Counted from the first letter of the stretch, positions 11,525 through 35,711 are shown. The stretch is DNA of 64,000 nucleotides from Desulfatibacillum sp. (GCA_020725555.1 DYEU01000026.1:115693-179692), one strand, 5' to 3'. Program-made: numbers and translations. The notes: generated by a model not told the origin, from the letters alone.

Positions 11525-11584
11525 ATCCTTTCTCCCGCAGCCGAAAAAAGGCCGGCCGCGAGGCCGGTGGCGGCAAGGAGAGCC

Positions 11585-12358
11585 ATGAAATCGATCGAGT
11601 CGCCGCGATCCATCCGGGATTATTTTGCCGCCCTCCCTGAGCGGCGCACCGCGCGCCAAGCCGCCGCAGGCCGGGCCGCGGCGCAGGCGGGCCCGCCCCG
11701 GTTCCTGGAGCTCATGCAGGAGGGGACGGCCCGGCCGGAGGCCCCCGCGCCGGGCGGCCTGCGGATCCGCGACTACCTGGGCCGGCCCTGCACCCGCCCC
11801 GCGGCCGGGGGCGGAGCGGGGCCTGCCGCCGCGGGGGTGCCTGCGGCGCGGGACGGGGGGCACCCCCCGGGGGAGGCCGTCTCGGCGAAAACGCCGCCCG
11901 GCGCGGGGGAGAGGCCTTCCCCGGCCTTCCGGAGTGCCGCCGCGGCGGAGCGGGAGACCGCGGGAGGCGGAGAGGCCGATCCGCGGATCGAGCGCGCCAT
12001 CCGCCGCGCGGCCGCCCGTCACGGGGTCGCCCCCGAGCTCCTGCGCGCCGTGGTCCGGGCCGAGTCGAATTTCGACCCCCGCGCGGTTTCGCCGCAAGGG
12101 GCGATGGGGCTCATGCAGCTCATGCCCGAAACGGCCCGCGAGCTCGGCGTGAGCCGGCCCTTCGACATCCAGCAGAACGTGGACGGCGGCGCCCGCTACC
12201 TCAAGCGCATGCTCGAGCGCTACGGCGGCGATCTGCGCCTGGCGCTCGCCGCCTACAACGCCGGGCCGGCCGCGGTCGAGCGCCACGAGGGCGAGGTGCC
12301 CTACGCCGAAACCCGCGCCTACGTGCGCCGCGTGCTGCGCGAGGCCGGCCGGGGATGA
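11585..12358 (+). CDS. Lytic transglycosylase (SLT domain) protein
   Basis: Track ORF 11462..12358, start put at ATG 11585 behind AAGGAG. C-terminal SLT motifs AESNFDPRAVSPQGAMGLMQLMPETA and AAYNAGP. N-terminal ~150 aa is low complexity with a repeated IRDY(F/L) motif. Confidence 0.8.
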   Translation: MKSIESPRSIRDYFAALPERRTARQAAAGRAAAQAGPPRFLELMQEGTARPEAPAPGGLRIRDYLGRPCTRPAAGGGAGPAAAGVPAARDGGHPPGEAVSAKTPPGAGERPSPAFRSAAAAERETAGGGEADPRIERAIRRAAARHGVAPELLRAVVRAESNFDPRAVSPQGAMGLMQLMPETARELGVSRPFDIQQNVDGGARYLKRMLERYGGDLRLALAAYNAGPAAVERHEGEVPYAETRAYVRRVLREAGRG

Positions 12359-14930: not shown

Positions 14931-16961
<2,031 letters not shown>

Positions 16962-17044: not shown

Positions 17045-18850
17045 ATGAGCGGCACCACCTGGGTCTACATCATGCTCGGCATCTACACGATCTATGCCTT
17101 CTACTGGGGCATCAAGGGCTACGTCACGGAGAAGACGTCGGCCGGTTACGCGATCGGGGGGCGGTCGATCCCGTTCATCGCCTTTCTCATGGCGGCGACG
17201 GCGGCCTCCTTTTCCGGCTGGACCTTCATCGGCCACCCGGGGCTCATCTGGCGCGACGGCCTCGCCTACGCCTTCGCCTCCTTCTACGTGCTCACCATCC
17301 CGATCACGGGGACCTTCTTCGCCAAGCGAAACTGGCTGCTCGGCAAGCGCTACGGGTTCATCACGCCGGGCGACATGTTCGCCTATTACTACAACTCCGA
17401 AACCGCCCGCTGGCTGACCGTGGCGACCTCGTTTCTCTACTCCATGTTCTACACCGCGGTTCAGCTCATGGCCTCGGCCGCCCTCTTTCACTGGGTCGCC
17501 GGGGTCCCCGTCACCTTCGGGGCGATCTTCATGGCCTTCATCTGCTGGTTCTACGTCTGCTCGGGGGGCATGAAGGCGAGCGCCTGGGTGGGCGTCCTGC
17601 AGTTCGTCCTGCTTGTCGGCGGCATCATCCTCATGGGCTACTACACGATCACCGCACCGGAGATCGGCGGCTGGAAAGGCATGTCCGAGGCGCTGCAGAA
17701 GCTCGACCGCAAGCTGCTCGAGGTCCCGGCCGTCCTGTTCTGGACCGAAAACGCCGCGGCCTACGCCAAGTCCCACGGGACGGTGATGTGGACCTCGCTC
17801 ATGTGCCTCACCTACATGTTCGCCCTGATGGGGATCCAGTCCTCGCCCGCCTTCACCATGTGGAACTTCGGCCAGAAGAGCCCCGCCCCGCTCGCCTGGC
17901 AGCAGACCTTCATGTCCACCTTCGTGGTGGGCTTCGCGCTCTTCTACTTCACCGCCTTCCAGGGGATGGGGGCGAAGATCCTCGAGCTCAAGGGGGTGCT
18001 CCAGTTCACCAAGGACAGCGACGTCGTGCCGATTCTCATGAAGACCTACCTGCCGCCGTTCGTCCTGGGACTCGTCTTCCTGGGGGCCATCGCGGCCATG
18101 CACTCGACCGCCGCCCCCTACATCAACACCGGCGGCTCGATCCTCCTGCGCGACGTCTACTGGCGCTACCTCCGCAGGCAGCAGGCCGGCCACAACGAGC
18201 AGATCTGGGTGAACCGGCTGCTCGCCACCGTGGTCACCGCCGCCGCCCTCGTGGTCGGGCTGCACTCGACCGCCGCCCTGGTCATCCTCGGGGCGCTCGC
18301 GACCGCCTTCGGGTTCGTGCAGTACATCTACCTTCTCGGCGTGAACTGGGGCTTCCGCTTCCCGGCGGTCGGCGCGAACCTGGGGGTGCTCGCGGGCATG
18401 GTCGCGGTCTTTCTCACCTATTACGTCTGGCCCAACCCGCTCTCCATGCACTGCGCCTTCTGGGGGCTCTTCACGGGCCTCGTGGTCGCCTACCTCTGCC
18501 GCCGCGTGGGGGTGAAGGACGACCCCGAGACCCTGCGGCGCCAGCAGGAGCTGCGCGCCTTCCTCAACGACATCGACGCCCCCTCGCCCTCGGGCCGCGC
18601 CTGGCGCCAGGCCATGAAGTGGATCGTCCCGATCTGGTATTTCTTCGCCATCGGCCCGGCCTGCATTCTCGGCAATTCCTCCTTCTCGTTCGCCGGCTTC
18701 CCGGCGCTGTGGTCCTGGCAGATCGCCTGGTGGATCCTCGGCATCGTCATGATGTGGGCGCTCACCTTCAAGGCCGAGATGGCGACCTGCACGGACCGCA
18801 TGCTCGAGCGCGCGGAGCGCGAGACGATGATCGTCGTGAAAGAGGCCTGA
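17045..18850 (+). CDS. Sodium:solute symporter (SSS/SLC5) family permease, predicted short-chain carboxylate uptake from context
   Basis: Track ORF 16814..18850 trimmed to ATG 17045 behind GAGGAGGGGGG. 601 aa, at least 13 hydrophobic helices, typical SSS N-terminus (YAIGGRSIPFIAFLMAATAASFSGWTFIG). Confidence 0.9.
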   Translation: MSGTTWVYIMLGIYTIYAFYWGIKGYVTEKTSAGYAIGGRSIPFIAFLMAATAASFSGWTFIGHPGLIWRDGLAYAFASFYVLTIPITGTFFAKRNWLLGKRYGFITPGDMFAYYYNSETARWLTVATSFLYSMFYTAVQLMASAALFHWVAGVPVTFGAIFMAFICWFYVCSGGMKASAWVGVLQFVLLVGGIILMGYYTITAPEIGGWKGMSEALQKLDRKLLEVPAVLFWTENAAAYAKSHGTVMWTSLMCLTYMFALMGIQSSPAFTMWNFGQKSPAPLAWQQTFMSTFVVGFALFYFTAFQGMGAKILELKGVLQFTKDSDVVPILMKTYLPPFVLGLVFLGAIAAMHSTAAPYINTGGSILLRDVYWRYLRRQQAGHNEQIWVNRLLATVVTAAALVVGLHSTAALVILGALATAFGFVQYIYLLGVNWGFRFPAVGANLGVLAGMVAVFLTYYVWPNPLSMHCAFWGLFTGLVVAYLCRRVGVKDDPETLRRQQELRAFLNDIDAPSPSGRAWRQAMKWIVPIWYFFAIGPACILGNSSFSFAGFPALWSWQIAWWILGIVMMWALTFKAEMATCTDRMLERAERETMIVVKEA

Positions 18851-18959: not shown

Positions 18960-19035
18960 CCCGGCCGGGCGATGCGCCGCCGGCGGGGGGCACCCCCCGC
19001 CGGCCCCACCCTTGCGTCGCGAGGAAAAGCGCCCG

Positions 19036-20943
19036 ATGACGAACCGCTACGAAGAAGACTACCGCCTGTCGATCCGGGACCCGGAGCGGTTCTGGGGGAC
19101 ACAGGCCGAGGCGATCGACTGGCACCGGCCCTGTGACCGCGTGCTCGACGACTCCCGCAAGCCCTTCACCCGCTGGTTTCCGGGAGGGGAGCTCAACACC
19201 TGCCACAACGCCCTCGACCGGCACGTCGCCCGGGGCCGCGGCCGGCAGGCGGCCCTGATCTACGACAGCCCGGTCACGGGAACGGTGCGCGCCTATACCT
19301 ACGAGGCGCTGCGCGACGAGACCGCCCGCTTCGCGGGCGTGCTCGCCGCCCTGGGTGTGCGCCGCGGCGACCGCGTCGTGATCTACATGCCGATGATCCC
19401 CGAGGCGGTGATCGCCATGCTGGGCTGCGCCCGGCTGGGTGCGGTGCACTCGGTCGTCTTCGGGGGCTTCGCCCCCCCGGAGCTCGCCGTGCGCATCGAC
19501 GATGCCGCGCCGAAGGTCGTCGTCTCCGCCTCCTGCGGCATCGAAGTGAACCGCCTGATCCCCTACAAGCCGCTCCTGGAGGCCGCGCTCGCCCGGGCCT
19601 CGGCCAAGCCCGAGCGCTGCCTCATCGTGCAGCGGCCGATGCACCGGGCCGAGCTCACCCCCGGCCGCGACCTCGACTGGGAGGAGGCCATGGCCCGGGC
19701 CGCGCCGCACGAGTGCGTCCCGGTGCGCGCGACCGACCCCCTCTACATCCTCTACACCTCCGGGACGACGGGGCTGCCCAAGGGGGTGGTGCGGGACAAC
19801 GGCGGCCATGCCGTGGCCCTGCACTACACGATGGGGGCGATCTACGGCATGCAGCCGGGCGAGGTGTACTGGGCGGCCTCGGACGTGGGCTGGGTGGTGG
19901 GCCATTCCTACATCGTCTACGGCCCTCTGCTGAAAGGATGCACGAGCATCCTCTACGAGGGAAAGCCCGTGGGGACGCCCGATGCCGGCGCCTTCTGGCG
20001 GGTGATCGCCCAGCACGGGGTGCGCTGCCTCTTCACCGCGCCGACCGCCTTCCGCGCCATCAAGCGGGAAGACCCCCGCGGGGAGATGCTGCGGCGCTAC
20101 GACCTCTCCGGCTTCCGGGCGCTCTTTCTCGCCGGCGAGCGGCTGGACCCCGACACGCTTCGCTGGGCCCAACGGCTGCTCGGGGTGCCCGTGATCGACC
20201 ACTGGTGGCAGACCGAGACCGGATGGGCAATCGCCGGCAACTGCCTCGGCCTGCATGCCTTTCCCGTCAAGGAGGGCTCGGCGACCAAGCCCGCCCCGGG
20301 CTGGGACCTGCAGGTCCTCGGCCCCGATGGGCAGCCCCTGCCCCCCGGCCAGATCGGCGCCCTCGTCGCCCGGCTGCCCCTTCCCCCGGGCACCCTGACG
20401 ACGCTGTGGAACAACGACGCCGGCTTCCTCAAGTCCTACATGGAGGAATTCCCCGGCTGCTACAAGACGGCCGATGCGGGCTTCATCGACGAGGAAGGCT
20501 ATGTCTACGTGATGTCGCGCACCGACGACATCATCAACGTCGCCGGCCATCGGCTTTCCACCGGCGCCATGGAGGAGGTGCTCGCCGACCACCCGGACGT
20601 GGCCGAGTGCGCCGTGCTCGGGGTCGAGGACCCCCTCAAGGGGCAGGTCCCGATCGGGTTTCTCGTGCTCAAGGCCGGCGTCGACCGCCCCCCCGAGCAG
20701 ATCGTCCGCGAGGTGATCCAGATGGTCCGCGACCGGATCGGCGCGGTCGCCTCCTTCAAGACGGCGACCGTGGTGAAGCGGCTGCCCAAGACCCGCTCCG
20801 GGAAGATCCTCCGCGGCACGATCCAGAAGATCGCCGACAACCGCCCCTGGAAAATGCCGGCCACGATCGACGACCCGGCCATCCTGGAGGAGATCCGCGA
20901 GGCGCTGCAGTCCCTCGGGTACGCCAAACCGCAGGGCGCGTAA
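19036..20943 (+). CDS. prpE: Propionate-CoA ligase / acyl-CoA synthetase (PrpE-like)
   Basis: Start at ATG 19036 (MTNRYEEDYRLSIRDPERFW). YTSGTTGLPKGV, HWWQTETGW, DDIINVAGHRLST, LPKTRSGKILRG. Confidence 0.88.
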   Translation: MTNRYEEDYRLSIRDPERFWGTQAEAIDWHRPCDRVLDDSRKPFTRWFPGGELNTCHNALDRHVARGRGRQAALIYDSPVTGTVRAYTYEALRDETARFAGVLAALGVRRGDRVVIYMPMIPEAVIAMLGCARLGAVHSVVFGGFAPPELAVRIDDAAPKVVVSASCGIEVNRLIPYKPLLEAALARASAKPERCLIVQRPMHRAELTPGRDLDWEEAMARAAPHECVPVRATDPLYILYTSGTTGLPKGVVRDNGGHAVALHYTMGAIYGMQPGEVYWAASDVGWVVGHSYIVYGPLLKGCTSILYEGKPVGTPDAGAFWRVIAQHGVRCLFTAPTAFRAIKREDPRGEMLRRYDLSGFRALFLAGERLDPDTLRWAQRLLGVPVIDHWWQTETGWAIAGNCLGLHAFPVKEGSATKPAPGWDLQVLGPDGQPLPPGQIGALVARLPLPPGTLTTLWNNDAGFLKSYMEEFPGCYKTADAGFIDEEGYVYVMSRTDDIINVAGHRLSTGAMEEVLADHPDVAECAVLGVEDPLKGQVPIGFLVLKAGVDRPPEQIVREVIQMVRDRIGAVASFKTATVVKRLPKTRSGKILRGTIQKIADNRPWKMPATIDDPAILEEIREALQSLGYAKPQGA

Positions 20944-20989: not shown

Positions 20990-21361
20990 ATGGGCAAGAC
21001 CGTGTTGATCGTGGACGACGAGCCCAGCCTCATCGTCGCGCTGCAGTTTCTCCTTGAGGAAAACGGGTTCGAAACCCGGGTCGCCTTCAGCGGCGAGGAG
21101 GCGCTCGAGTCGATCGCCGCGCACCGGCCCGATCTCGTCCTCCTCGACATCATGCTGCCCGCGGTCGACGGCTTCGAGGTCTGCCGCCGCATCCGGGAAA
21201 ACCCGGAGACCCGCGACATCCGCATCGTCCTTCTCTCGGCGCTCGGGGGCCAGGCGCACATCACCCGCGGGATGGACCTCGGCGCCGACGCCTACATCAC
21301 CAAGCCCTTCTCCAACGCCGAGCTGCTCTCCCGCATCCGGGAACTGCTGGGATGCGCCTGA
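20990..21361 (+). CDS. Stand-alone response-regulator receiver (CheY-like)
   Basis: 123 aa. VLIVDDEPS, LVLLDIMLP (phospho-Asp), LLSALG, ITKPF are all present. No output domain. Confidence 0.92.
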   Translation: MGKTVLIVDDEPSLIVALQFLLEENGFETRVAFSGEEALESIAAHRPDLVLLDIMLPAVDGFEVCRRIRENPETRDIRIVLLSALGGQAHITRGMDLGADAYITKPFSNAELLSRIRELLGCA

Positions 21362-23487
21362 ACCTCTCCCCCGGCTCCTATGGGTTCGCCGTGCTGCTCG
21401 CCGCGGCCGCGGCGCTGGGGGGGGCCGCCCTCTTCGGGCTTCTGGCCTGGCGGGATCTCGACCCTGCCGAGCGGGCCGCAGCCGGCGAGCTCCTGCGGCG
21501 CAGCGGGCCCACCCTCGCCCTGGGGGGGTGCCTCGTGCTTCTCGTCGGCGGGATGCTCGTCGAATGGATCGACCGCCAGTACCGCAGGCCGCTCGGCCGC
21601 CTGCGGGAGCAGGTCTCGATCCTGCGCGGCCTTTCCCCCTCGCGGCGCATCCGCCCCGAGGGGGCCGCCGAGGTGCAGGGGCTGGCGGCGGAGATCAACG
21701 CCTTGTCCGATCTTCTCGAGGCGCGCCGCGAGAGCGTCGAAGAGCGCATCCGGGCCGCCCGCGGCGAGCTCGAGGAGGAAAAGCGCCTGCTCTCCGGCAT
21801 CCTGGCCGAGCTGCCCGAAGGGGTCCTCGTCTGCGACCCGGAGGGGCGGATCATCCTCTACAACGAGCGGGCCCGGCAATGGCTCGGGGACCCCCCGATC
21901 GGGCTGGGGCGTTCGCTGCTTTCGGTTTTCGACCCGGGGCTCTTCCGGCAGGCCCTGGAGGATGTCGCCTCGCGGCTCAAGCGGGCGGGCCGCGAGCCGG
22001 CCGTTTCCTTTGCCGCCCGGCTGCCGGGCGGCCGGCTGCTCCACACCACGATGGCGCCGCTGCTTGCGCCGACGCGCGAAATCCGCGGCGTGATCCTGAT
22101 CTTCGCCGACGCGACCGAAGCCGACGAGGCCGTGTGCCGGGGCGAAGAGGCCCTGGAGACCCACTTCTTCACCCTGCGGCGCTCCGTCGGCATCCTGCGC
22201 ACGACCGTCGAGATCCTGCGCGACGCCAAGGGGCTTCCCCCCGGGAAGCGGCGCGAATTCGAAGAGATCCTGGACCGCGAATCCCGCACCGCGGCCCAGG
22301 CGACCGAGGAGGCGGCGGCCGCCTGGGCCGCCCACCGCCCGCCCACCGGTGCGGTGTCGGCCATGCCGGCCGGCGATTTCCTGGAGCTGCTCGCCCGGAG
22401 GGTGCGGGGGCTCGGGGAGATCGACGTCCGCCGCGAGGTTCCGCACCCGACGCTCTGGGTCCGGGCCGACGGGCAGGCGATGGCCGCGGCGATCGTCTTT
22501 CTCCTGTCGCGGCTCGCCCCCCCGCCCGGCGGCCTGCGGCGGATTCATTGCCGCTGCACGCGCCGCGAGCACCGCGTGCTCGTCGACCTCGTCGGCACCG
22601 GCGCCCCCCCGGAGGCCGCCGCACAGGCCGCCTGGGAGCGGGAGCCGCTCGCGGTCGGCGGGGTCACCCTGAACACGACGCTGGCCGAGGTGTTCCGGCG
22701 GCACCGCGCCTCGTGGTGGGTGCTGCCGCCGGGGGAGTCGGCGGAGGGGACGCTCCGCGTGATGCTCGAGGCGGCCGGGCCTCCGGCCATCCCCCCGCCC
22801 CGCCGCACGACGCTTCTTGCCGGCTCCCGCCCGGTCTATTACGATTTCGACCTCTTCGCCGGACGCCGGGCCGGGGCGGCTCTGCTCGATCAGCCGCTCG
22901 GCCTGCTGGTCTGCACCGCCTTCGATACCGAAACCACGGGGTTGGACCCGGAGGGCGGCGACGAGATCATCGCCCTCGGCGCGGTGCGGATCGTGAACGG
23001 GAGGCTTCTCGAGTCGGAGGTCTTCGAGCGGCTCGTGCGGCCGGGGATCGACCCCCGGCCCGAGTCGGTGCGGATTCACGGCCTGGGGCCCGACATCCTG
23101 CGCGATCAGCCGGAGGCCGGGGCCGTGCTCGCCGAGTTTGCGCGCTTCGCCGAGGGGACGGTCCTGGTCGCCCACCACGCCGCCTTCGACATGCGCCTGC
23201 TCACGCTCCAGGGCGGCCGCGCCGGCGTGCGCTTCGACCAGCCGGTGCTCGACACCCTGTTGCTCTCGCTCGCCGTGCACCCGGGCCATGCGGACCACCG
23301 GCTCGAGGCGATCGCCGAGCGGCTGGGGGTGACGATCCGGGGGCGCCACACGGCCCTGGGCGACGCGCGGGCGGCGGCGGAGATTTTCCTGCGCCTCACC
23401 CCGCTCCTGGAGAAGGCGGGGATCGCGACCCTCGCCCAGGCGCTCGAGGCCTCGCGCGGCGCCCTCGAACGGCGCCTCAGGGGGTGA
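21352..23487 (+). CDS. Membrane sensor: 2TM-HAMP-PAS-degenerate histidine-kinase-like module fused to a DEDDh (DnaQ-like) 3'-5' exonuclease
   Basis: 711 aa. Start overlaps the receiver stop by 10 nt. TM segments FAVLLAAAAALGGAALFGLLAW and LALGGCLVLLVGGMLVEWI. HAMP-like YRRPLGRLREQV...EVQGLAAEINALSDLL. PAS-like LLSGILAELPEGVLVCDPEGRIILYNERARQWLG. Kinase-like region lacks a canonical H-box (ETHFFTLRRSVGILRTTVEIL), N-box Asn (FLLSRL) and G-boxes (DLVGTGA, GGVTLNTTL). Exo I FDTETTGL, Exo II LVAHHAAFDMRLL, Exo III HTALGDARAAAEIF are intact. Confidence 0.85.
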   Translation: MRLNLSPGSYGFAVLLAAAAALGGAALFGLLAWRDLDPAERAAAGELLRRSGPTLALGGCLVLLVGGMLVEWIDRQYRRPLGRLREQVSILRGLSPSRRIRPEGAAEVQGLAAEINALSDLLEARRESVEERIRAARGELEEEKRLLSGILAELPEGVLVCDPEGRIILYNERARQWLGDPPIGLGRSLLSVFDPGLFRQALEDVASRLKRAGREPAVSFAARLPGGRLLHTTMAPLLAPTREIRGVILIFADATEADEAVCRGEEALETHFFTLRRSVGILRTTVEILRDAKGLPPGKRREFEEILDRESRTAAQATEEAAAAWAAHRPPTGAVSAMPAGDFLELLARRVRGLGEIDVRREVPHPTLWVRADGQAMAAAIVFLLSRLAPPPGGLRRIHCRCTRREHRVLVDLVGTGAPPEAAAQAAWEREPLAVGGVTLNTTLAEVFRRHRASWWVLPPGESAEGTLRVMLEAAGPPAIPPPRRTTLLAGSRPVYYDFDLFAGRRAGAALLDQPLGLLVCTAFDTETTGLDPEGGDEIIALGAVRIVNGRLLESEVFERLVRPGIDPRPESVRIHGLGPDILRDQPEAGAVLAEFARFAEGTVLVAHHAAFDMRLLTLQGGRAGVRFDQPVLDTLLLSLAVHPGHADHRLEAIAERLGVTIRGRHTALGDARAAAEIFLRLTPLLEKAGIATLAQALEASRGALERRLRG

Positions 23488-26215
23488 GCGCCGGCGGCGG
23501 GGGGGGAGGGGGCCTGAGCGGCAGGCCGAAATGAAACGCGGCGCCGCCCTCGGGGCCCGATGCGGCGCGGATCCAGCCCCCGTGGTGCTCGAGGATCCGG
23601 CGCACGATGGCCAGCCCGAGGCCCGTGCCGGCCAGACGGCCCCGCGGGCCGCGGCGGCGCACCTGGTAGAAGGCCTCGAAGACGGCCTCGCGGTCCTCGG
23701 CCGGGATGCCGGGGCCGTTGTCGCTCACGACCCCGGTGATCTCGTCCCCGCGGCGCTCGAGGCGGACGTCGATCCGGCCGCCGGTGTCGGGGCAGAACTT
23801 CAGGGCGTTCGACAGCAGGTTGAGGGCGACCTGCAGCAGGCGGTCGCGATCCCCGAAGACCGGCGGGAGCGTTTCCGGTTCCTCGAGCGCGAGGCGGATT
23901 CCCCGCTCCTCGAGCATCGGCCGCATCGCGGCGGCCGCCTCGCGCCAGACCTCCCGCAGGTCCAGGGGGAGCGGCTGCCCGAGGGACTTGCCGCTTTCGA
24001 GCCGCTGGAAATCGAGCACCTGGTTCACCAGCCGCCCCAGGCGCTCGCTTTCCTTCACCACGACCGCGGTCAGGCTCCGGCGGCGCTCCTCGGGCATCCG
24101 CGGGTGCGCCTGCAGCGATTCGGCGATGGAGCGCACCGCGGCGAGCGGGGTTCGCAGCTCATGGGTGACGGTGGCAATGAACTCGTCCTTCAAGCGGTCG
24201 AGTTCTTCGAGGCGCCGGTTGGCGGCGCGCAGCTCCTCGGCGAGCTTTTCGAGCTCGCGGCTGTAGCTGATGGCGGCCCGGTTTTCCTCGAGGATCTCGA
24301 GGAGCTCCTCGGCGCGAAGCGGTTTCTCCTGCACGACCGAGGCGACCATCACGCGGGCCGAGGCCGAGCCGACGGCACCCGCGAGCAGCCCCTCGGCGAA
24401 GGTGACGAGCGCCGGGTCGGCCGGCCGCCCCGGCCTCGGCCGCAACCCGTGATGGCGCGCGAACTCGCCCAGGGCCTCCTCGGTCCGCTCCCGGCCGAGG
24501 AAACGCTCGAGCAGAAGCCGGAGATCCCGAACGCGGGCCGTTCCCCGCCACAGCGGCACCGCCTCCGGCCGGGCGGGGAAGGCGAAGGCGTCGACGAAAA
24601 GCTCCGCCTGCGCCCGCTCCGCGGCCGGCGGCGTGCCGAGGAGCGAGAGCCCGGTGAAGAGGCCGAGGTTGACGAGCAGGCTCCAGAAGAAGGCATGGGC
24701 GATCGGGTTCAGGCCCTCGAGGCCCATCAGGTGGCCGGGCCGGAGCCAGCCCCAGCCTGCCGGGCCGTGGGCGACGATCGCCTCCCCGAGGAGGCCGGCG
24801 TCCACCAGCGAGGGCACGATCAGGGTGTAGAACCAGACGGCGAAGCCGCCGATCAGCCCGGCCAGGGCGCCGCGGCGGGTGGCGTGCTTCCAGAAGAGGC
24901 CGCCGAGGAGGGCCGGGGCGAACTGCGCGACCGCCACGAAGGAGATTTGGCCGAGCGCGACCAGGGAGTGCATCTGCCCGATCGCGCGGTAGTAGGCGTA
25001 GCCCGAGGCGAGAACGAGGACGATGCAGGCGCGACGCAGGACGAGGATCCCGCGGCGGGGGTCCCGCTCCAGGGAAAGCGGCCGGCCGGGCAGCCGCAGC
25101 CAGAGCGGCAGCAGGAGGTCGTTGGCGATCATGGTCGCGAGAGCCACCGACTCGACGATCACCATCGCGGTCGCCGCCGACATGCCGCCCACGAAGGCGA
25201 CGAGCGCCAGCCCCTCCCGCTGCAGGGCGAGCGGCAGCGTGAGGCCGAAGGTGTCCGCGTCCACCCCGCCGGGAAACTGGAGGCTGCCGGCCACGGCGAT
25301 CGGCAGGACGAAGAGGTTGATCGCCCAGAGGTAGAGCGGAAAGAGCCACAGTGCCTTTCCCAGGTGCTCTTCGCTCACGTTTTCGACCACGGCCACGTGG
25401 AACTGGCGCGGGAGGCAGAGAAAGGCGAGAAACGAGAGCAGCATCTCGAGCGACCACCCCAGGGGCTCGGCGCGCGGGTGGGCGGCGGCGAGAATCTCCT
25501 GCAGCCGCGGCTCGGCCGCGGCGCGGCCGAAGAGGGCGGCGGGGCCGCCGAAGGCGGCCAGAGTGAAGAGCCCGACGGCGACAAAGGCGGCGAGCTTCAC
25601 GATCGACTCGAAGGCCACGGCGGCCACGATCCCCTCGTGGCGCTCGGTGGCCTCGAGCTTGCGCGTGCCGAACAGCATGGCGAAGAGGGCGAGGAGCCAG
25701 GCCACGTGGAAGGAGGTGTCCTCCAGTACGGGCTTGGCTTCCAGGTGCCGCGGCATGATGATCAGGGGCGCGTGGCTCAGGATGTCGAAGCCGTCGGCGA
25801 CGGCCTTGAGCTGGAGGGCGATGTAGGGGATCAGCCCCAGCAGGGCGAAGCAGGTCACCGCGGCGGCGAGGGCCGCGCTCTTGCCGTAGCGGGAGGAGAG
25901 AAAATCGGCGATCGAGGTGGTGCGGTGGGCTTTCCCGATGCGGATCATCTTGCGCATCACCGTAAAGCCCAGCGCGCAGGCGAGCGTCGGCCCCAGGTAG
26001 GTGGGCAGGAAGGCCGGCCCCTCCGCGGCGGCGCGGCCGACGCTGCCGTAGAAGGTCCAGGCCGTGCAGTACACGGCGAGCGAGAGCGCGTAGACGTAAG
26101 GGTTGGCGATCGCGCTGCGGCCGCGCTCCGCCCGCCGGTCGGCCCAAAAGGCGACGGCAAAAAGCAGGCCCACGTACCCGAGGGCCACGGCGAGGATGAG
26201 CGGCGCGCCCAGCAC
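23477..26215 (-). CDS. SLC5/SSS-domain-fused sensor histidine kinase (CbrA/CrbS-like, no receiver domain)
   Basis: 912 aa, GTG start. N-terminal ~500 aa polytopic SSS-like domain, linker (LGEFARHHGL...LLAGAVGSASARVMVASVV), H-box ATVTHELRTPLAAV, N-box LLSNALKF, G1 DNGPGI, G2 GTGLGLAIV. The 3' end overlaps the convergent sensor-exonuclease gene by 11 nt. Confidence 0.9.
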   Translation of the reverse strand: MLGAPLILAVALGYVGLLFAVAFWADRRAERGRSAIANPYVYALSLAVYCTAWTFYGSVGRAAAEGPAFLPTYLGPTLACALGFTVMRKMIRIGKAHRTTSIADFLSSRYGKSAALAAAVTCFALLGLIPYIALQLKAVADGFDILSHAPLIIMPRHLEAKPVLEDTSFHVAWLLALFAMLFGTRKLEATERHEGIVAAVAFESIVKLAAFVAVGLFTLAAFGGPAALFGRAAAEPRLQEILAAAHPRAEPLGWSLEMLLSFLAFLCLPRQFHVAVVENVSEEHLGKALWLFPLYLWAINLFVLPIAVAGSLQFPGGVDADTFGLTLPLALQREGLALVAFVGGMSAATAMVIVESVALATMIANDLLLPLWLRLPGRPLSLERDPRRGILVLRRACIVLVLASGYAYYRAIGQMHSLVALGQISFVAVAQFAPALLGGLFWKHATRRGALAGLIGGFAVWFYTLIVPSLVDAGLLGEAIVAHGPAGWGWLRPGHLMGLEGLNPIAHAFFWSLLVNLGLFTGLSLLGTPPAAERAQAELFVDAFAFPARPEAVPLWRGTARVRDLRLLLERFLGRERTEEALGEFARHHGLRPRPGRPADPALVTFAEGLLAGAVGSASARVMVASVVQEKPLRAEELLEILEENRAAISYSRELEKLAEELRAANRRLEELDRLKDEFIATVTHELRTPLAAVRSIAESLQAHPRMPEERRRSLTAVVVKESERLGRLVNQVLDFQRLESGKSLGQPLPLDLREVWREAAAAMRPMLEERGIRLALEEPETLPPVFGDRDRLLQVALNLLSNALKFCPDTGGRIDVRLERRGDEITGVVSDNGPGIPAEDREAVFEAFYQVRRRGPRGRLAGTGLGLAIVRRILEHHGGWIRAASGPEGGAAFHFGLPLRPPPPPPPALTP

Positions 26216-26221
26216 GGCGCC

Positions 26222-26440
26222 TCAGGGGCCGCCCCCGCGGTCGGGGGGGCTCTCGCGGGAGACGAGGGCGATCAGCGCGGTCAGACCCGCCCAGGCGAGG
26301 TAGAGGTAGACGTAGAGGAGGGGGAGCTCCAGGATTCCGGCCGGTTGGGCGAACAGCGAAAGCATCGGGGGGTTGAGGAGCAGGCACCCCAGCAGGAAGA
26401 CGACCCATCTGCGGTCGTTGCGGCCGGCATTCGGCTCCAT
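26222..26440 (-). CDS. 72-aa two-helix membrane protein (DUF3311-like / CbrX-like leader ORF) upstream of the SLC5-kinase
   Basis: MEPNAGRNDRRWVVFLLGCLLLNPPMLSLFAQPAGILELPLLYVYLYLAWAGLTALIALV... Stop is 6 nt before the kinase GTG. This pattern resembles small ORFs that precede SSS transporters (recollection). Confidence 0.55.
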   Translation of the reverse strand: MEPNAGRNDRRWVVFLLGCLLLNPPMLSLFAQPAGILELPLLYVYLYLAWAGLTALIALVSRESPPDRGGGP

Positions 26441-26553: not shown

Positions 26554-28884
26554 ATGAAGGAGTCCCGGATCGAGGTTCTCGCCCGGATCAAGCCTTTCGG
26601 TGAGCTCCCCGGCCGGGAGCTCGGCGAGATCGCCGCTGCGCTCGCGCCGATGCGCTTTGCGGCCGGCACGCTCCTTGCGGTCCAGGGGCGCAGCACGCTC
26701 GACTACGTCTACATCGTCCGCTCGGGCCGCCTGGAGCTTTTTTTCGAAGAGCCCGGCAAGAAAACCCTCCGTGCGGAGCTCGCCCCCGGGGACATCTTCG
26801 GGGCGGTCTCCATCCTGTTCAACGGCGGGCTCGCCATCCGCAGCCTGCGCGCGCTCGAGGAGGCCGAGCTCTGGCTGATCCCCCGCCAGCGGTTTCTCGA
26901 CCTCTGCCGGCGCCACGCCCGGCTCACCGCCCATTTCGAGGGCGTGTTCAGCGAGCGGATGCAGAACGAGGAGTACGCGCGCAGCCTCGCCGGCTCTCTG
27001 CTCACGCAGTTTCTCGCGCGCATCCCCCCGTTTTCCTTTCTGCCGGAGGAGGAGCTCCGCCGTCTCGCCCCGCACCTCCGGCGGCTTTTCATCCCCCGGG
27101 GGACCCGGCTCTTCGTCCAGGGCGAATCGCGCGTCGACGGGCTCTACATCCTGCAGAGCGGCGCGGCCGAGCGCTTCTACGAGGAGCACGGCGAGCGCCG
27201 GCTGGTCAGCGTCATGGGGGAGGGGGAGATCTTCGGGGGGATCTCCCTGCTGGTGAACGACATGCTCGCCGTGCGCTCGCTGCGGACGATCGAGGATTGC
27301 CTTTTCTGCAAGCTCGATTGCGACGCCTTCTTCGACCTCTGCCGCCGCTACCCCCTCTTTAGCGAGTTCTTCACCGACGCCTTCGGCAAGCGCATGCTCG
27401 ACCGCACCTACGCGGCGATCATCGCCAAGGGCGAGGCGGTCGACACCGGGCCGGTCGCCTTCTTCGACCAGCCCGTCGCCGGGGTGTGCTCCCGGGAGCT
27501 CCTCGCCTGCGAGGCCGGCCTGTCGATCCGCGAGGCGGCCGAGCGCATGAGCGCCCGCCGCTGCAGCAGCATCTTCGTCCGTGACGAGGGGGGGCGGCCG
27601 TCCGGGATCGTCACCGACAGCGACATCCGCAGCCGGGCCGTGGCCGCCGGCCGCGACCCCGAGGAGCCGGTGGCGGCGATCATGAGCACGCCCCTCCGGA
27701 CGGTCCCCGAGAAGGCCTCCGTCTTCGAGGCCCTCATGGCGATGATGCAGCACGGGATCAAGCACCTCGCCGTGACCGGCGAGGAGGGGGGGGTCGTCGG
27801 CGTGGTCACCCAGCAGGACATTCTCGGCCGCCAGGGGATCTCCCCCTGGCGGCTGCTCCGGGACGTGGCCGGCGAGTCGCGGCCGGAGGTCTTCAAGACC
27901 CTCGGCCTCCGGCTGCCGCGGATCCTCCAGGGGTTCATCCGCTCGGGCACGACGGCCGACCAGATCAACCGCTTCATCACCGCCTTCACGGACGCCGTGC
28001 TCGAGCGGCTCTGCCGCGCGGCGCTGGCCGACCTGGGGCCCCCGCCCGGGCCCTTCGCCTTTTTGCTCCTCGGCAGCGAGGGCCGCCGGGAACAGACCCT
28101 CTGCACGGACCAGGACAACGCGATCCTCTACGAGGACCCGCCGCCGGGGCGGGAGGAGGCGGTGCAGGCGTGGTATCTGCGCTTCGGCGAACGCGTGTGC
28201 GCGGATCTCGACCGGGCGGGGTTCCGGCGCTGCCGGGCCGAGGTCATGGCGAGCAACCCGAAGCTGTGCCGGCCGTTTTCGGTGTGGCTGCGCCGGTTTC
28301 AGGACTGGATCCACGCCGCCGAGGCCGAGGACCTGCTCTACGCCAGCATCTTCTTCGATTTCCGGCTCGGCTTCGGCGACCCGGGGCTCGTCGAGCGGCT
28401 GCGGGCCTCCCTCAGCCGGGAGATCGCCGGCTGGACGGGGTTTTTGCGCCACCTCGCGCTGAACGCGCTCCACACCCGGCCGCCGATCGGGATCTTCCGC
28501 AACTTCATTCTCGAGTCGAAGGGCGAGCACCGCCGCAAGCTCGACATCAAGCGCGCCATGCTGCCGATCGTGGACGCCGCCCGGATCTACGCCCTGAAGC
28601 ACGCCGTCGCCGAAACCAACACGCTCGCCCGGCTGCGGCAATGGCAGGCGTTGCCGGGAGCGGCGGCGCGGGAGATCCAGGAGATCGAGCAGGGCTACCG
28701 CTTTCTCATGCAGCTGCGGCTCGCCCACCAGGCCGAGCAGATGACGCACCCCGGCCAGGCGGCGGACAACCACATCGACCCGCGGACCCTCTCCGGGATG
28801 GAACAGCGCCTGCTGAAGGAGGTCTTCCTGCGGATCGCCGGTCTGCAGACCCGCCTGAGCCTCGAATGGACGGGGGAGCCCTGA
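26554..28884 (+). CDS. 2x cNMP-binding + CBS pair + DUF294 nucleotidyltransferase + DUF294_C protein
   Basis: 776 aa. Two cyclic-nucleotide-binding-like beta-barrels (GDIFGAVSILFNGGLAIRSLRA; GEIFGGISLLVNDMLAVRSLRT). CBS pair (SSIFVRDEGGRPSGIVTDSDI; KHLAVTGEEGGVVGVVTQQDIL). NTase core FAFLLLGSEGRREQTLCTDQDNAILYED. C-terminal helical domain with IKRAMLPIVDAARIYAL. Confidence 0.9.
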   Translation: MKESRIEVLARIKPFGELPGRELGEIAAALAPMRFAAGTLLAVQGRSTLDYVYIVRSGRLELFFEEPGKKTLRAELAPGDIFGAVSILFNGGLAIRSLRALEEAELWLIPRQRFLDLCRRHARLTAHFEGVFSERMQNEEYARSLAGSLLTQFLARIPPFSFLPEEELRRLAPHLRRLFIPRGTRLFVQGESRVDGLYILQSGAAERFYEEHGERRLVSVMGEGEIFGGISLLVNDMLAVRSLRTIEDCLFCKLDCDAFFDLCRRYPLFSEFFTDAFGKRMLDRTYAAIIAKGEAVDTGPVAFFDQPVAGVCSRELLACEAGLSIREAAERMSARRCSSIFVRDEGGRPSGIVTDSDIRSRAVAAGRDPEEPVAAIMSTPLRTVPEKASVFEALMAMMQHGIKHLAVTGEEGGVVGVVTQQDILGRQGISPWRLLRDVAGESRPEVFKTLGLRLPRILQGFIRSGTTADQINRFITAFTDAVLERLCRAALADLGPPPGPFAFLLLGSEGRREQTLCTDQDNAILYEDPPPGREEAVQAWYLRFGERVCADLDRAGFRRCRAEVMASNPKLCRPFSVWLRRFQDWIHAAEAEDLLYASIFFDFRLGFGDPGLVERLRASLSREIAGWTGFLRHLALNALHTRPPIGIFRNFILESKGEHRRKLDIKRAMLPIVDAARIYALKHAVAETNTLARLRQWQALPGAAAREIQEIEQGYRFLMQLRLAHQAEQMTHPGQAADNHIDPRTLSGMEQRLLKEVFLRIAGLQTRLSLEWTGEP

Positions 28885-29266: not shown

Positions 29267-29884
29267 TCAGGGGAGGTCTTCGGGGGGGGCGGGGGCGATC
29301 GCGCGGCGGCAGATCTCCCAGAGGGGGCGGTAGCCCGCGGAGAGGTTGAAGCGGTAGTCGTCGAGGGCCCAGAGGGTCACCAGGCCCTGGATCATGCTGA
29401 AGAGCAGGAGCGCCACCGCCTGCGGGTCGGTCCCTTCGCGGATCTCGCCGCGGGCTGCGCCGTCGGCGACCAGGCGGCCCAGGCGCTCGAGGTAGACCGC
29501 GAGTTTGTCGTGGACCTCGCGGTTGAGGCGGCGGTCCCCGAAGCTCAGGATCTCGGCGATCACGAGAAAGGCCATGCCGCGGCGCTGCTCGATCTCGGAG
29601 AGGTGATCCTCCTGGATCCGGCCGATCCGCTCGAGGGTGCCCCCCGGCCCGGAGGAGACACGCTCGACCTCGGCGACCAGGGTGTCGAGGATATCGTCGA
29701 CGAGGAAGAGCAGCACCTCGCGTTTGCTGCGGAAGTGGCGGTAGATGGCGGCCTCGGTCAGCCCCACCTCGCGTGCCATGGCCCGCACCGTGAGGTGCTC
29801 GCTTCCCTTGCGGATGATCAGCTTGCGGGCGGCGTCGAGAATCTCCCGCTTGCGGACGGCGCTGCTGCGGCGGTGCTGGCTCAT
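29267..29884 (-). CDS. TetR/AcrR family transcriptional regulator
   Basis: Only the last 205 codons of the artefactual 998-aa track ORF 29267..32263. ATG comp(29882-29884). HTH LTVRAMAREVGLTEAAIYRHFRSKREVL. Confidence 0.9.
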   Translation of the reverse strand: MSQHRRSSAVRKREILDAARKLIIRKGSEHLTVRAMAREVGLTEAAIYRHFRSKREVLLFLVDDILDTLVAEVERVSSGPGGTLERIGRIQEDHLSEIEQRRGMAFLVIAEILSFGDRRLNREVHDKLAVYLERLGRLVADGAARGEIREGTDPQAVALLLFSMIQGLVTLWALDDYRFNLSAGYRPLWEICRRAIAPAPPEDLP

Positions 29885-35634: not shown

Positions 35635-35711
35635 TGGTGGGCTGCGCTGGAATCGAACCAGCAACCTAATGATTAAGAGTCATTTGCTCTGCCTAGTTGA
35701 GCTAGCAGCCC
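35635..35711 (-). tRNA. tRNA-Lys (anticodon CTT), CCA encoded
   Basis: Reverse complement GGGCTGCTAGCTCAACTAGGCAGAGCAAATGACTCTTAATCATTAGGTTGCTGGTTCGATTCCAGCGCAGCCCACCA. 7-bp acceptor GGGCTGC/GCAGCCC, D stem GCTC/GAGC, anticodon stem AATGA/TCATT with loop CT-CTT-AA, T arm GCTGG-TTCGATT-CCAGC. Confidence 0.93.

Follow-up and report, generated by a model that had tools for sequence, protein, structure and literature searches.

The region under study lies in a window of 64,000 nucleotides from Desulfatibacillum sp. (GCA_020725555.1 DYEU01000026.1:115693-179692) and comprises, at positions 20,990 to 23,487, two overlapping genes on the plus strand. The first (20990..21361) encodes a stand-alone receiver (REC) protein of 123 amino acids without output domain (Pfam PF00072, Response_reg; E 6.8e-30), and the second (21352..23487) a protein of 711 amino acids in which, according to Pfam and a family alignment, a membrane sensor and pseudo-histidine kinase is fused to a DEDDh exonuclease. 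The fusion gene begins with the ATG at 21352 and the REC gene ends with the TGA at 21359-21361, leading to a 10-nt overlap; this overlap, the reading frames and their coordinates agreed exactly with the original prediction. The receiver had also been predicted to carry all phospho-acceptor residues, and its acidic pocket (D9/D10), acceptor Asp (D53), T/S position (S83) and Lys (K105) were all found in the translation. Among the RECs adjoining 83 homologous loci these residues are retained almost without exception (D10 83/83, D53 82/83, T/S83 82/83, K105 83/83). Beyond this 123-aa protein, the 64-kb window encodes no further REC domain.

Convergent with the fusion gene, and overlapping it by 11 nt, is the gene for a CbrA-like 'transceptor' histidine kinase of the SLC5 type (912 aa, 23477..26215, minus strand; HisKA 2.3e-16, HATPase_c 2.2e-28). 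This kinase is non-hybrid and lacks a REC domain; its H, N, G1 and G2 boxes are all intact, and its residues 8-470 match structure 10ED (E 2.3e-71), identified as the SLC5-STAC part of CbrA (PMC13022988). Directly upstream of the kinase gene, an ORF for a 72-aa membrane peptide with two hydrophobic segments (26222..26440, minus strand) was detected, which resembles the two-helix peptide CbrX (PMC13022988, PMC6591292). It is followed by a plus-strand gene (26554..28884) for a GlnD/GlnE-like nucleotidyltransferase of 776 aa with two cNMP-binding, two CBS, a DUF294 and a DUF294_C domain by Pfam, the translation of which contains the GS...DxD motif GSEGRREQTLCTDQD. On the other side, upstream of REC and likewise on the plus strand, Pfam and NCBIfam assigned an acetate-CoA ligase (14931..16961), an SSF symporter (~17045-18850) and a PrpE/Acs-like ligase (19012-20943).

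Conservation of the gene cassette

In correction of the original framing, the fusion is no isolated case but belongs to a very widespread, if unstudied, family. Confirmed matches number 573 in species-representative genomes, with cultured hosts including Aromatoleum, Azoarcus and Denitromonas. All of the best 150 representatives (50%-identity clusters) gave E<1e-190 and nearly all aligned near full length, most being ~690-770 aa long and a few shorter, probably partial, indicating that the fusion architecture is far beyond chance.

The fusion gene is directly preceded by a REC gene in 83/83 loci, often with an overlap, and an SLC5-type kinase is encoded in 77/86, with a colinear kinase-REC-fusion order in 64. 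The homologous small-peptide ORF was detected in 48/86 loci and the DUF294 gene in 57/86; DUF294 is missing within 8 kb at about a third of the loci, and Aromatoleum has an SSF symporter instead. One relative (P0027) is a natural RNase_T-CBS-DUF294 fusion with the same type of exonuclease. The functional linkage of the fusion to REC, SLC5 kinase and DUF294 enzyme, as originally proposed, is thus strongly supported by comparative genomics. The upstream order of acetate-CoA ligase, SSF symporter and PrpE/Acs-like ligase recurs in loci L001 and L005-L011, and acs, SSF and TetR genes are syntenic neighbours from Desulfobacterales to Chloroflexi. The conserved cassette consists of the CbrX-like peptide, the SLC5 kinase, REC and the fusion, often DUF294, and usually acs and an SSF symporter. 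An OmpR-type regulator is found close to it in just 8/84 loci.

The pairing of a nucleotidyltransferase with a nuclease is superficially CBASS-like, and the generic DEDDh model of PADLOC matches the exonuclease domain, as might be expected for an anti-phage or abortive-infection module in which a sensor controls a DEDDh effector and a nucleotidyltransferase generates the signal. However, PADLOC gave only generic domain matches, to REC and DEDDh, while kinase and DUF294 protein were left without a match, the neighbours are stable, syntenic metabolic genes rather than defence islands, and acetate and propionate induce the canonical DUF294/exonuclease pair via MxtR/ErdR (PMC9765439, PMC9927547), which makes a defence function very improbable.

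Membrane, PAS and pseudokinase modules

Only two hydrophobic 19-mer peaks were observed in the fusion protein, at residues ~12-32 (21385..21447, plus strand; Kyte-Doolittle >1.6, helical in the AF2 model) and ~52-73 (21505..21570, plus strand; Kyte-Doolittle and AF2 model). As the stretch between both TM segments is just ~20 residues long, a real periplasmic sensor domain is lacking. The second segment is followed by a HAMP-like helix-loop-helix (residues ~74-128; 21571..21735, plus strand) leading into a signalling coiled coil up to residue ~153, with helices 38-93 and 106-153 and a loop at 94-105 in the AF2 model, and with a nearly invariant N116 in the family alignment. The family profile aligns here with the HAMP-PAS part of VicK (4i5s). 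A cytoplasmic PAS domain was assigned to residues 147-258 (21790..22125, plus strand) by PAS_4 (E 6.9e-11; 42.8 bits, cut-off 23.1) and PAS_9 (3.3e-6), and a profile search matched it to the PAS structures of WalK (4mn5/7duc). Of the Pfam signatures proposed for this protein, PAS_4 and RNase_T were found, while the HAMP, HisKA and HATPase_c models gave no match to it, even at E<=10.

In place of HisKA and HATPase_c matches, other comparisons identified the kinase-like module. Alignments with VicK, DivL and the cognate kinase placed a DHp-like two-helix hairpin at residues 259-327 (22126..22332, plus strand), and hhalign, Foldseek and conservation a degenerate CA (Bergerat-fold) domain at residues 336-476 (22357..22779, plus strand). 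Using hhalign against the DHp-CA part of the neighbouring SLC5 kinase, a probability of 99.6% was obtained (E 1.3e-23, 216 columns); a PDB profile search with the family matched VicK (E 8.8e-18), ThkA, DivL and HK853, and Foldseek with the DHp/CA module matched WalK (1e-20) and VicK (1e-15). In the H-box, R276 and E287 are retained, and the His position (273) is Phe in the window protein. Across 170 family members this column reads E/A/D/I/Q/R and never shows a conserved His, with any His within +/-3 of it in just 18/170. The same alignment shows neither the Asn of the N-box, a region reading F-L-L-x-R-L, nor a G2 box (GxGLG), and the G1 box is cut down to D412..W/G..G417. The CA-like domain has conserved residues of its own (W369, D373, R387, D412, G417, W428, R450, H451 and W456). 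At its junction to the exonuclease lies a family-specific linker motif, R-P-x-[YF]-Y-D-F-D-L-F (residues 493-502; 22828..22857, plus strand), which is invariant in 23/23 sequences and at least 85% conserved over the 170 members. Judged from these alignments, the module is homologous to real histidine kinases and has lost the kinase motifs family-wide.

The domain order and fold of residues ~1-478 resemble those of WalK/VicK (TM-HAMP-PAS-DHp-CA; best matches 9a5d and 4i5s), but in the fusion neither acceptor His nor N-box Asn nor G2 box is present, there is hardly any periplasmic loop and an exonuclease is added at the C terminus. A functional parallel may be DivL, a pseudokinase that senses the phosphorylated single-domain receiver DivK in Caulobacter crescentus and serves as the model for a REC~P docking on a DHp that acts as receptor and not as phosphodonor. 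Like the fusion, it is a membrane-anchored, PAS-containing HisKA-type homologue without acceptor His that is paired with a stand-alone REC, and both profile and Foldseek searches matched its structure (4q20). In DivL, however, the CA domain still matters for nucleotide binding and the output is allosteric control of CckA, whereas in the fusion the CA motifs are eroded and a DEDDh enzyme is fused as output, and REC docking is proposed here by analogy.

Exonuclease domain

The DnaQ-like DEDDh 3'-5' exonuclease domain spans residues ~520-690 (22909..23421, plus strand; RNase_T, PF00929, E 3.1e-32, 112.8 bits, cut-off 24). Its catalytic residues in Exo I (D525/E527), Exo II (D613) and Exo III (H666/D671) are invariant in 170/170 relatives, confirming the predicted intact motifs. 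Two outcomes named beforehand as speaking against the prediction, a functional kinase core and a catalytically dead exonuclease, were examined by profiles and alignment, respectively, with the results that the kinase motifs are absent and that all five DEDDh residues are present. All peptide strings quoted in the original prediction were found in the translation, and the predicted anatomy, from the N-terminal membrane, HAMP-like, PAS and pseudo-DHp-CA modules to the C-terminal DEDDh domain, is fully supported. The loss of the kinase motifs throughout the family, together with the invariance of the DEDDh residues, indicates that selection maintains nuclease chemistry and the DHp/CA scaffold, but not kinase chemistry.

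In the PDB profile search, the exonuclease domain, for which the AF2 model is of low confidence, matched the PolC exonuclease (2p1j, 6e-42) and epsilon (2e-22). Its closest sequence relatives are thus DNA proofreading domains, which do not point to RNA, an oligonucleotide or protein-NMP as the substrate. With PolC and DnaQ exonucleases as the best PDB and NCBIfam matches, and with relatives usually named 'DNA polymerase III subunit epsilon' in the databases, one might regard the protein as a plain epsilon or DNA-repair proofreading paralogue with an irrelevant N-terminal part. This is extremely improbable, as the scores for the dnaQ equivalogs are far below their cut-offs (TIGR01406 98.6, cut-off 222.7; PRK05711 96.3, cut-off 196), the domain is preceded by a membrane anchor and 500 residues of conserved signalling modules, and the neighbouring genes are those for REC, SLC5 kinase and Acs rather than replication genes. 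Moreover, the dnaQ models match the catalytic domain alone, and the protein stops ~20 residues past it, lacking the C-terminal alpha-binding segment specific to epsilon. Hundreds of database entries carry the name 'DNA polymerase III subunit epsilon' wrongly. The three Exo motifs and the DEDDh His are shared with Pol III epsilon, the PolC exonuclease domain, RNase T and oligoribonuclease, but these known enzymes are soluble and outside two-component control, whereas the fusion is tethered to the membrane on a dimeric signalling scaffold, with the RPxYYDFDLF motif ahead of the nuclease.

Membership in PRK09145, the family of the PP_0353/PA3232-type exonucleases, was also considered. The fusion scored 91.8 bits (cut-off 189), compared with 285 for a true member from L002, which is 34% identical to the window protein. 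From these scores the latter is a paralogue related to the PRK09145 proteins and not one of them.

Relation to the Pseudomonas DUF294/exonuclease pair

A DUF294 protein and an exonuclease encoded with acetate genes have already been published as PP_0354/PP_0353, PA3233/PA3232 and Pflu5625 (PMC9927547, PMC9765439, PMC5715377), the first of which depend on MxtR/ErdR more than any other genes of P. putida (bioRxiv 10.64898/2026.09.07.749794; PMC9927547). The pseudokinase-fused form is mentioned in none of PMC9927547, PMC9765439 and PMC5715377. Our cassette shares with the CrbS/CrbR (MxtR/ErdR) and CbrXA/CbrB systems the SLC5-domain kinase, the upstream small membrane peptide like CbrX, the linkage to acs, actP-like and prpE-like genes and the pairing of a DUF294 nucleotidyltransferase with a DEDDh exonuclease. 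In contrast to CrbS/CrbR, its kinase is not hybrid, without a C-terminal REC, and its partner is a bare REC; neither a LuxR-type (CrbR) nor a sigma-54-type (CbrB) regulator is encoded near the cassette. The cassette exonuclease differs from the PP_0353 type as a PRK09145 paralogue that carries a 500-residue sensor/pseudokinase, and the pair that is a transcriptional target in Pseudomonas appears to be wired at the protein level here. In the cassette, a paralogue of the PP_0354/PP_0353 pair is thus equipped with a sensor, and in one genome the cassette co-occurs with the canonical pair of DUF294 and PRK09145 exonuclease.

Proposed function

From gene order, domain content and the conserved and lost motifs, we consider it somewhat better than an even bet (probability about 0.55) that the region forms the core of a conserved two-component cassette that acts non-transcriptionally and is tied to the use of short-chain carboxylates, with a nuclease gated by REC~P. 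The SLC5 'transceptor' kinase with the CbrX-like peptide would sense carboxylate transport or availability and phosphorylate the stand-alone REC. REC~P would then dock, like DivK~P on DivL, on the His-less DHp of a pseudokinase that is dimeric and anchored in the membrane, and docking and the fusion's own HAMP/PAS input may together alter the DHp/CA-like geometry and thereby gate the C-terminal DEDDh pair. The signal would in this way run from kinase via REC~P and pseudo-DHp to the nuclease, as originally proposed, which is consistent with the genomic data. The exonuclease and the DUF294 enzyme would share one nucleotide-containing substrate, the exonuclease either trimming or removing what DUF294 adds or degrading an RNA or oligonucleotide. 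The pseudo-DHp is very similar to the DHp of the cognate kinase along both helices, which fits recognition of the same REC; as a point against, the window proteins differ at the positions corresponding to known specificity residues, with I/T/I in the pseudo-DHp vs A/S/S in the kinase DHp. An underpowered MI/APC covariation analysis of REC and pseudo-DHp (n=83) gave no clear interface signal, and its REC/real-kinase positive control failed as well.

As the fusion has a HAMP/PAS input of its own, REC is not necessarily its main switch. The protein might be an autonomous nuclease controlled by its complete HAMP-like and PAS modules, with the DHp-like hairpin sequestering or scaffolding REC (as sink, connector or for localisation) or modulating the SLC5 kinase. 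The signal would then run in reverse or in parallel, and REC would have no part in gating the nuclease. Such an arrangement, which we regard as rather doubtful, would suit the REC-fusion pairs without adjoining kinase (L085 and the second pair of L081; in L014 the kinase is 5 kb away) and the role of phosphate sink that is common for stand-alone REC proteins. Against it, the coupling of REC and fusion (83/83, with frequent overlap) is tighter than a generic sink requires, and the kinase is usually without another output protein in the cassette. For phosphatase activity of HisKA proteins, furthermore, Thr or Asn is expected at H+4, but the corresponding position 277 is R/A/S in the family, so that active dephosphorylation by the pseudokinase is unlikely.

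A different proposal concerns the substrate and can be combined with a REC~P-gated nuclease: the exonuclease might be an 'eraser' of NMP written by the DUF294 enzyme on a protein (e.g. Acs) or small molecule, and not a nucleic-acid exonuclease. DUF294/DUF294_C is grouped with the protein nucleotidylyltransferases GlnD/GlnE (PMC3710099, PMC5715377). The genes for writer and exonuclease adjoin or are fused, acs, prpE-like and symporter genes are neighbours, and the chemistry would be analogous, namely hydrolysis of an O-P phosphodiester to free 5'-NMP. We know of no DEDDh enzyme, however, that de-nucleotidylylates proteins, the domain is closest in sequence to DNA proofreading exonucleases, and P. 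putida deletion mutants are only mildly affected, on pyruvate and propionate (PMC9927547; bioRxiv 10.64898/2026.09.07.749794), and we therefore think an eraser unlikely. If there is one, carboxylate activation would be adjusted by the cassette post-translationally. The notion of a complete post-transcriptional or post-translational two-component pathway, in which the transporter-like kinase reports carboxylate flux, REC~P docks on the dead kinase and the latter switches a DEDDh phosphodiesterase which reverses or competes with DUF294-dependent nucleotidylylation (e.g. of an acyl-CoA synthetase) or RNA 3'-tailing, is something of a long shot.

The output of two-component systems is nearly always a transcription factor, a cyclic-di-GMP enzyme or a motor. 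An exonuclease output via a pseudokinase has to our knowledge not been described, nor was a description found in the searched literature, and the cassette suggests a two-component pathway with a nuclease, not a transcription factor, at its end. If REC~P indeed acts through the dead kinase on a DEDDh enzyme that reverses or competes with the DUF294 reaction, this would be the first two-component system with a nuclease output, and a function would be assigned to the DUF294/exonuclease pair of Pseudomonas and Vibrio. As the family is large and has members in well-studied degraders and wastewater bacteria that are amenable to genetics (Aromatoleum, Azoarcus, Zoogloea, Denitromonas), the hypothesis is directly testable. 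The existence of a version hard-wired to a sensor kinase and a receiver argues that the DUF294/exonuclease pair serves carboxylate metabolism as a regulated module for signalling or modification, and the cassette provides a handle on the Pseudomonas DUF294/exonuclease operon, the strongest MxtR/ErdR-dependent unit with almost no deletion phenotype.

Domain organisation of the receiver and the putative pseudokinase::exonuclease fusion

The receiver gene (REC; 20990-21361, + strand, 123 codons) is followed on the same strand by the gene of the fusion protein (21352-23487, 711 codons), the ATG of which lies 10 nt before the REC TGA; the overlap is as originally predicted, and all peptide strings quoted in that prediction are present in the two translations. 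REC consists of a receiver domain alone (Pfam Response_reg, E 6.8e-30), with D9/D10, D53, S83 and K105, and is the sole REC domain of the 64-kb window. Its acceptor residues are kept in 82-83 of the 83 REC neighbours of fusion homologues.

The fusion protein has two hydrophobic segments only (residues ~12-32 and ~52-73, separated by ~20 residues), and residues 152-258 match PAS_4 (E 6.9e-11), in agreement with the PAS-like block proposed before. Neither the whole protein nor isolated fragments of it matched Pfam HAMP, HisKA or HATPase_c at E ≤ 10, and homology of these types was visible only via family profiles, hhalign and structure comparison. The profile of an alignment of 23 full-length relatives (34-90% identity) matched WalK/VicK-type kinase structures across HAMP-PAS-DHp-CA (4i5s, E 6.6e-20), together with ThkA (3a0r), DivL (4q20), 4u7n and 5c93. 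An AF2 model from a 23-sequence alignment was usable for residues 1-478 (pLDDT 70-88) and of low confidence in the exonuclease part; the best structural neighbours of the usable part were WalK (9a5d, 1e-20), VicK, LOV-kinases, ThkA, HK853 and DivL. When residues 255-482 (170 family members) were compared by hhalign with DHp-CA of the adjacent SLC5 kinase (74 orthologues), both aligned over 216 columns (probability 99.6%, E 1.3e-23). The residue mapping onto kinases agreed between these alignments.

In this mapping the kinase motif 'sHELRTPL' is aligned to 'xxxxRxxLA' of the family, with R276 and the later E287 retained. The column of the phospho-acceptor His (residue 273; 22168-22170) holds Phe in the window fusion and E, A, D, I, Q or R over the 170 members. 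The N-box Asn is absent from a region reading F-L-L-x-R-L, the G1 box is reduced to D..W.G, the GxGLG of G2 is lost, and the H+4 position, where T/N is needed for HisKA phosphatase activity, is R/A/S. With His, N-box Asn and G2 missing throughout the family alignment, the original assignment as a pseudokinase is borne out at the sequence level, and the predicted dead-kinase state is ancient and common to the entire family. Glu is the commonest residue at 273 (78/170 relatives); it may imitate phospho-His, or the alignment may simply be off by one position against the HE dipeptide. The CA-like domain retains conserved residues of its own (W369, D373, R387, D412, G417, W428, R450, H451 and W456). 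About 22 residues before Exo I, a linker motif R-P-x-[YF]-Y-D-F-D-L-F (residues 493-502; 22828-22857) is nearly invariant and may serve in autoinhibition or docking. In a stand-alone PRK09145 exonuclease from a related locus (L002), Exo I is preceded by 'PDFAFMFDP', which resembles the motif only vaguely.

The C-terminal RNase_T/DnaQ-type domain spans residues 523-679 (Pfam, E 3.1e-32). Its Exo motifs, described before as intact, are complete in 170/170 members, with D525/E527 in Exo I, D613 in Exo II and H666/D671 in Exo III. Among solved structures, the domain is closest to the PolC exonuclease (2p1j, 6e-42) and Pol III epsilon (2e-22). An identity as dnaQ, the epsilon subunit of DNA Pol III, was rejected, with NCBIfam equivalog scores far under the cut-offs and the genomic context against it. 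A role in defence was rejected as well, PADLOC giving generic DEDDh and REC matches only, and both the epsilon-subunit and the anti-phage reading are poorly supported. As no NCBIfam model reaches its cut-off on the protein, the fusion is without a curated NCBIfam family. When only the exonuclease domain was used as the query, most matches were truncated pieces of this family on short contigs, and new domain partners were not found.

Distribution of the family

An exhaustive HMM search covered 1.84 billion cluster representatives, and the best 150 matches listed all had E < 1e-190; most of these were ~690-770 aa long, and the few shorter ones are probably partial. In genomes taken one per species, at least 573 relatives were confirmed, annotated in databases as 'exonuclease domain-containing protein' or 'DNA polymerase III subunit epsilon'. 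Desulfobacterales contain the members closest to the window fusion (76-90% identity). Further members occur in Rhodocyclales (Aromatoleum evansii, A. diolicum, A. toluclasticum, Azoarcus, Zoogloea, Sulfuritalea, Propionivibrio and Denitromonas), Burkholderiales, Chloroflexi, Planctomycetota and Thermoleophilia. The fusion represents a large overlooked family and no singular oddity.

Gene neighbourhood

In the window, REC and the fusion are preceded by an acetate-CoA ligase, an SSF symporter and a PrpE-like ligase. The first acyl-CoA synthetase (14931-16961, +) passes the acetate-CoA ligase cut-offs, and the second (19012-20943, +) is nearest to PrpE, the propionate-CoA ligase, with 754.6 bits against a cut-off of 955. 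This arrangement around the symporter is syntenic in related Desulfobacterales (L001 and L005-L011). Convergent with the fusion lies a 912-aa SLC5 kinase (23477-26215, -) with intact H, N, G1 and G2 boxes, and directly upstream of the kinase gene is an ORF for a 72-aa peptide with two hydrophobic helices (26222-26440, -). This peptide sits where CbrX does relative to its kinase and looks like a counterpart of CbrX, the peptide bound to the CbrA SLC5 domain in the cryo-EM structure 10ED (PMC13022988; PMC6591292). The gene of a cNMPx2-CBSx2-DUF294-DUF294_C protein (26554-28884, +) is divergent from the kinase gene and is followed by a TetR-family regulator (TetR_N and TetR_C_4; ~29267-29860, -) in the same relative position as in L001; its mechanical ORF call (998 aa) is greatly overextended because of the high G+C content (~71% in the window). 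Promoter/terminator and Rfam scans of the cassette region gave nothing informative. A tRNA-Lys (CTT; 35635-35711, -) is the sole Rfam or ARAGORN match of the 64-kb window.

The window proteins were compared by tblastn with 84 related loci containing 86 fusion genes. As flanks extended no further than 8-10 kb and contigs often stop within them, the resulting counts, which are consistent with the called genes, are lower bounds. REC lies immediately upstream of the fusion on the same strand in 83/83 cases where upstream DNA exists. The SLC5 kinase is present for at least 77 of the 86 fusions, with kinase, REC and fusion colinear in at least 64 loci; DUF294 was found in at least 57 (directly downstream in 43), an acyl-CoA synthetase in at least 45, and the small peptide was detectable in at least 48/86. 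The typical betaproteobacterial operon reads acs, peptide, kinase, REC, fusion, DUF294, and in Aromatoleum the place of DUF294 after the fusion is taken by an SSF symporter. An OmpR-type REC and winged-helix regulator adjoins the cassette in only 8/84 loci (L024, 3696-4367, +; L031, ~11545-12204, -; L019, L037, L040, L051, L057 and L071), and in these lineages the output of the kinase may be branched, transcriptional as well as nucleolytic.

Some loci deviate from this layout. L085 (7134-12014) shows an apparent split into a REC of 124 aa, a 483-aa sensor/pseudokinase ORF and, 45 nt downstream, a 226-aa exonuclease ORF, followed by DUF294; an SLC5 kinase was not found within 9 kb. Perhaps the gene has truly been split here, or the long-read assembly contains an indel error; L086, which stems from that study as well, clearly has many frameshifts. 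Tandem fusion genes occur on some Burkholderiales contigs (L081, 7483-9995 and 14995-17370; L023, 3-2090 and 7400-10034). Each fusion of L081 has its own REC, with one SLC5 kinase for the two, and in L023 the contig end removes the DNA upstream of the first fusion.

Relation to the DUF294/exonuclease pair of Pseudomonas

DUF294/DUF294_C is a GlnD/GlnE-like nucleotidyltransferase of the polymerase-beta superfamily (PMC3710099). In Pseudomonas, a cNMP-CBS-DUF294 gene with a downstream RNase_T-family exonuclease is known as PP_0354/PP_0353, PA3233/PA3232 and Pflu5625 (PMC9927547; PMC9765439; PMC5715377). These pairs are direct and the most strongly dependent targets of the SLC5-kinase system MxtR/ErdR (CrbS/CrbR), are induced by propionate and acetate, adjoin actP in P. 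aeruginosa, and give only mild defects upon deletion (PMC9927547; bioRxiv 10.64898/2026.09.07.749794; PMC9765439; PMC5715377).

Both types of module occur ~2 kb apart in one genome (L002; 2485-4963, -, and 6870-13497, +): a cNMP-CBS-DUF294 gene with a stand-alone PRK09145 exonuclease (285 bits, a true member) beside acs-DUF485-SSF, and a kinase-REC-pseudokinase::exonuclease-DUF294 cassette followed by DUF4212 and SSF. These coexisting modules are paralogues of each other. The window exonuclease domain is 34% identical to this PRK09145 exonuclease and scores under the PRK09145 cut-off, and is therefore a paralogue of that type. A 687-aa protein (P0027) is a natural RNase_T-CBS-DUF294-DUF294_C fusion, the N-terminal exonuclease of which is 42% identical to that of the window over the aligned stretch; as Rosetta-stone evidence, this argues that nuclease and nucleotidyltransferase act together. 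The SLC5-type kinase systems characterised so far are three only, CrbS/R, CbrA/B and RpuS/R (PMC9100948), and unlike the window cassette none is partnered by a bare REC and a pseudokinase-nuclease. A full-text literature search found no description of a pseudokinase::exonuclease fusion.

Proposed mechanism

Near-certain are the architecture, the loss of kinase function and the retention of nuclease function (both judged by motifs), and the conserved association with REC, kinase and DUF294. For the mechanism, we infer that the SLC5 transceptor kinase would report carboxylate transport or availability and phosphorylate REC. REC~P would then dock on the histidine-less DHp of a membrane-tethered pseudokinase dimer, as does DivK~P on the pseudokinase DivL. 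Together with HAMP/PAS input, this would move the CA-like domains and the pair of DEDDh domains at the C termini, and so switch nuclease activity; control via dimer geometry is plausible because several DEDDh enzymes, such as RNase T and oligoribonuclease, act as dimers. The fusion nuclease and DUF294 probably share a substrate, for which the candidates are a protein or small molecule carrying a nucleotidyl mark, a nucleotide tail and an oligonucleotide. To this overall picture, from kinase to nuclease switching with a substrate probably common with DUF294, we assign a probability of roughly 0.55. MI with APC covariation between REC and pseudo-DHp (83 pairs) showed no enrichment of the expected alpha1/DHp interface, but the analysis was underpowered, as the positive control of REC against the DHp of the real kinase (74 pairs) did no better.

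The original observation is real and accurate, and its interpretation is a reasonable one, the proposed wiring having gained strong comparative support from the association of REC, kinase and DUF294. The cassette combines known kinds of components, namely a pseudokinase receptor, a DEDDh nuclease and an SLC5 kinase system. The large size of the family makes it less of a rarity but more testable and more relevant, since it touches on an unexplained part of the acetate regulon, the operon of DUF294 and exonuclease.
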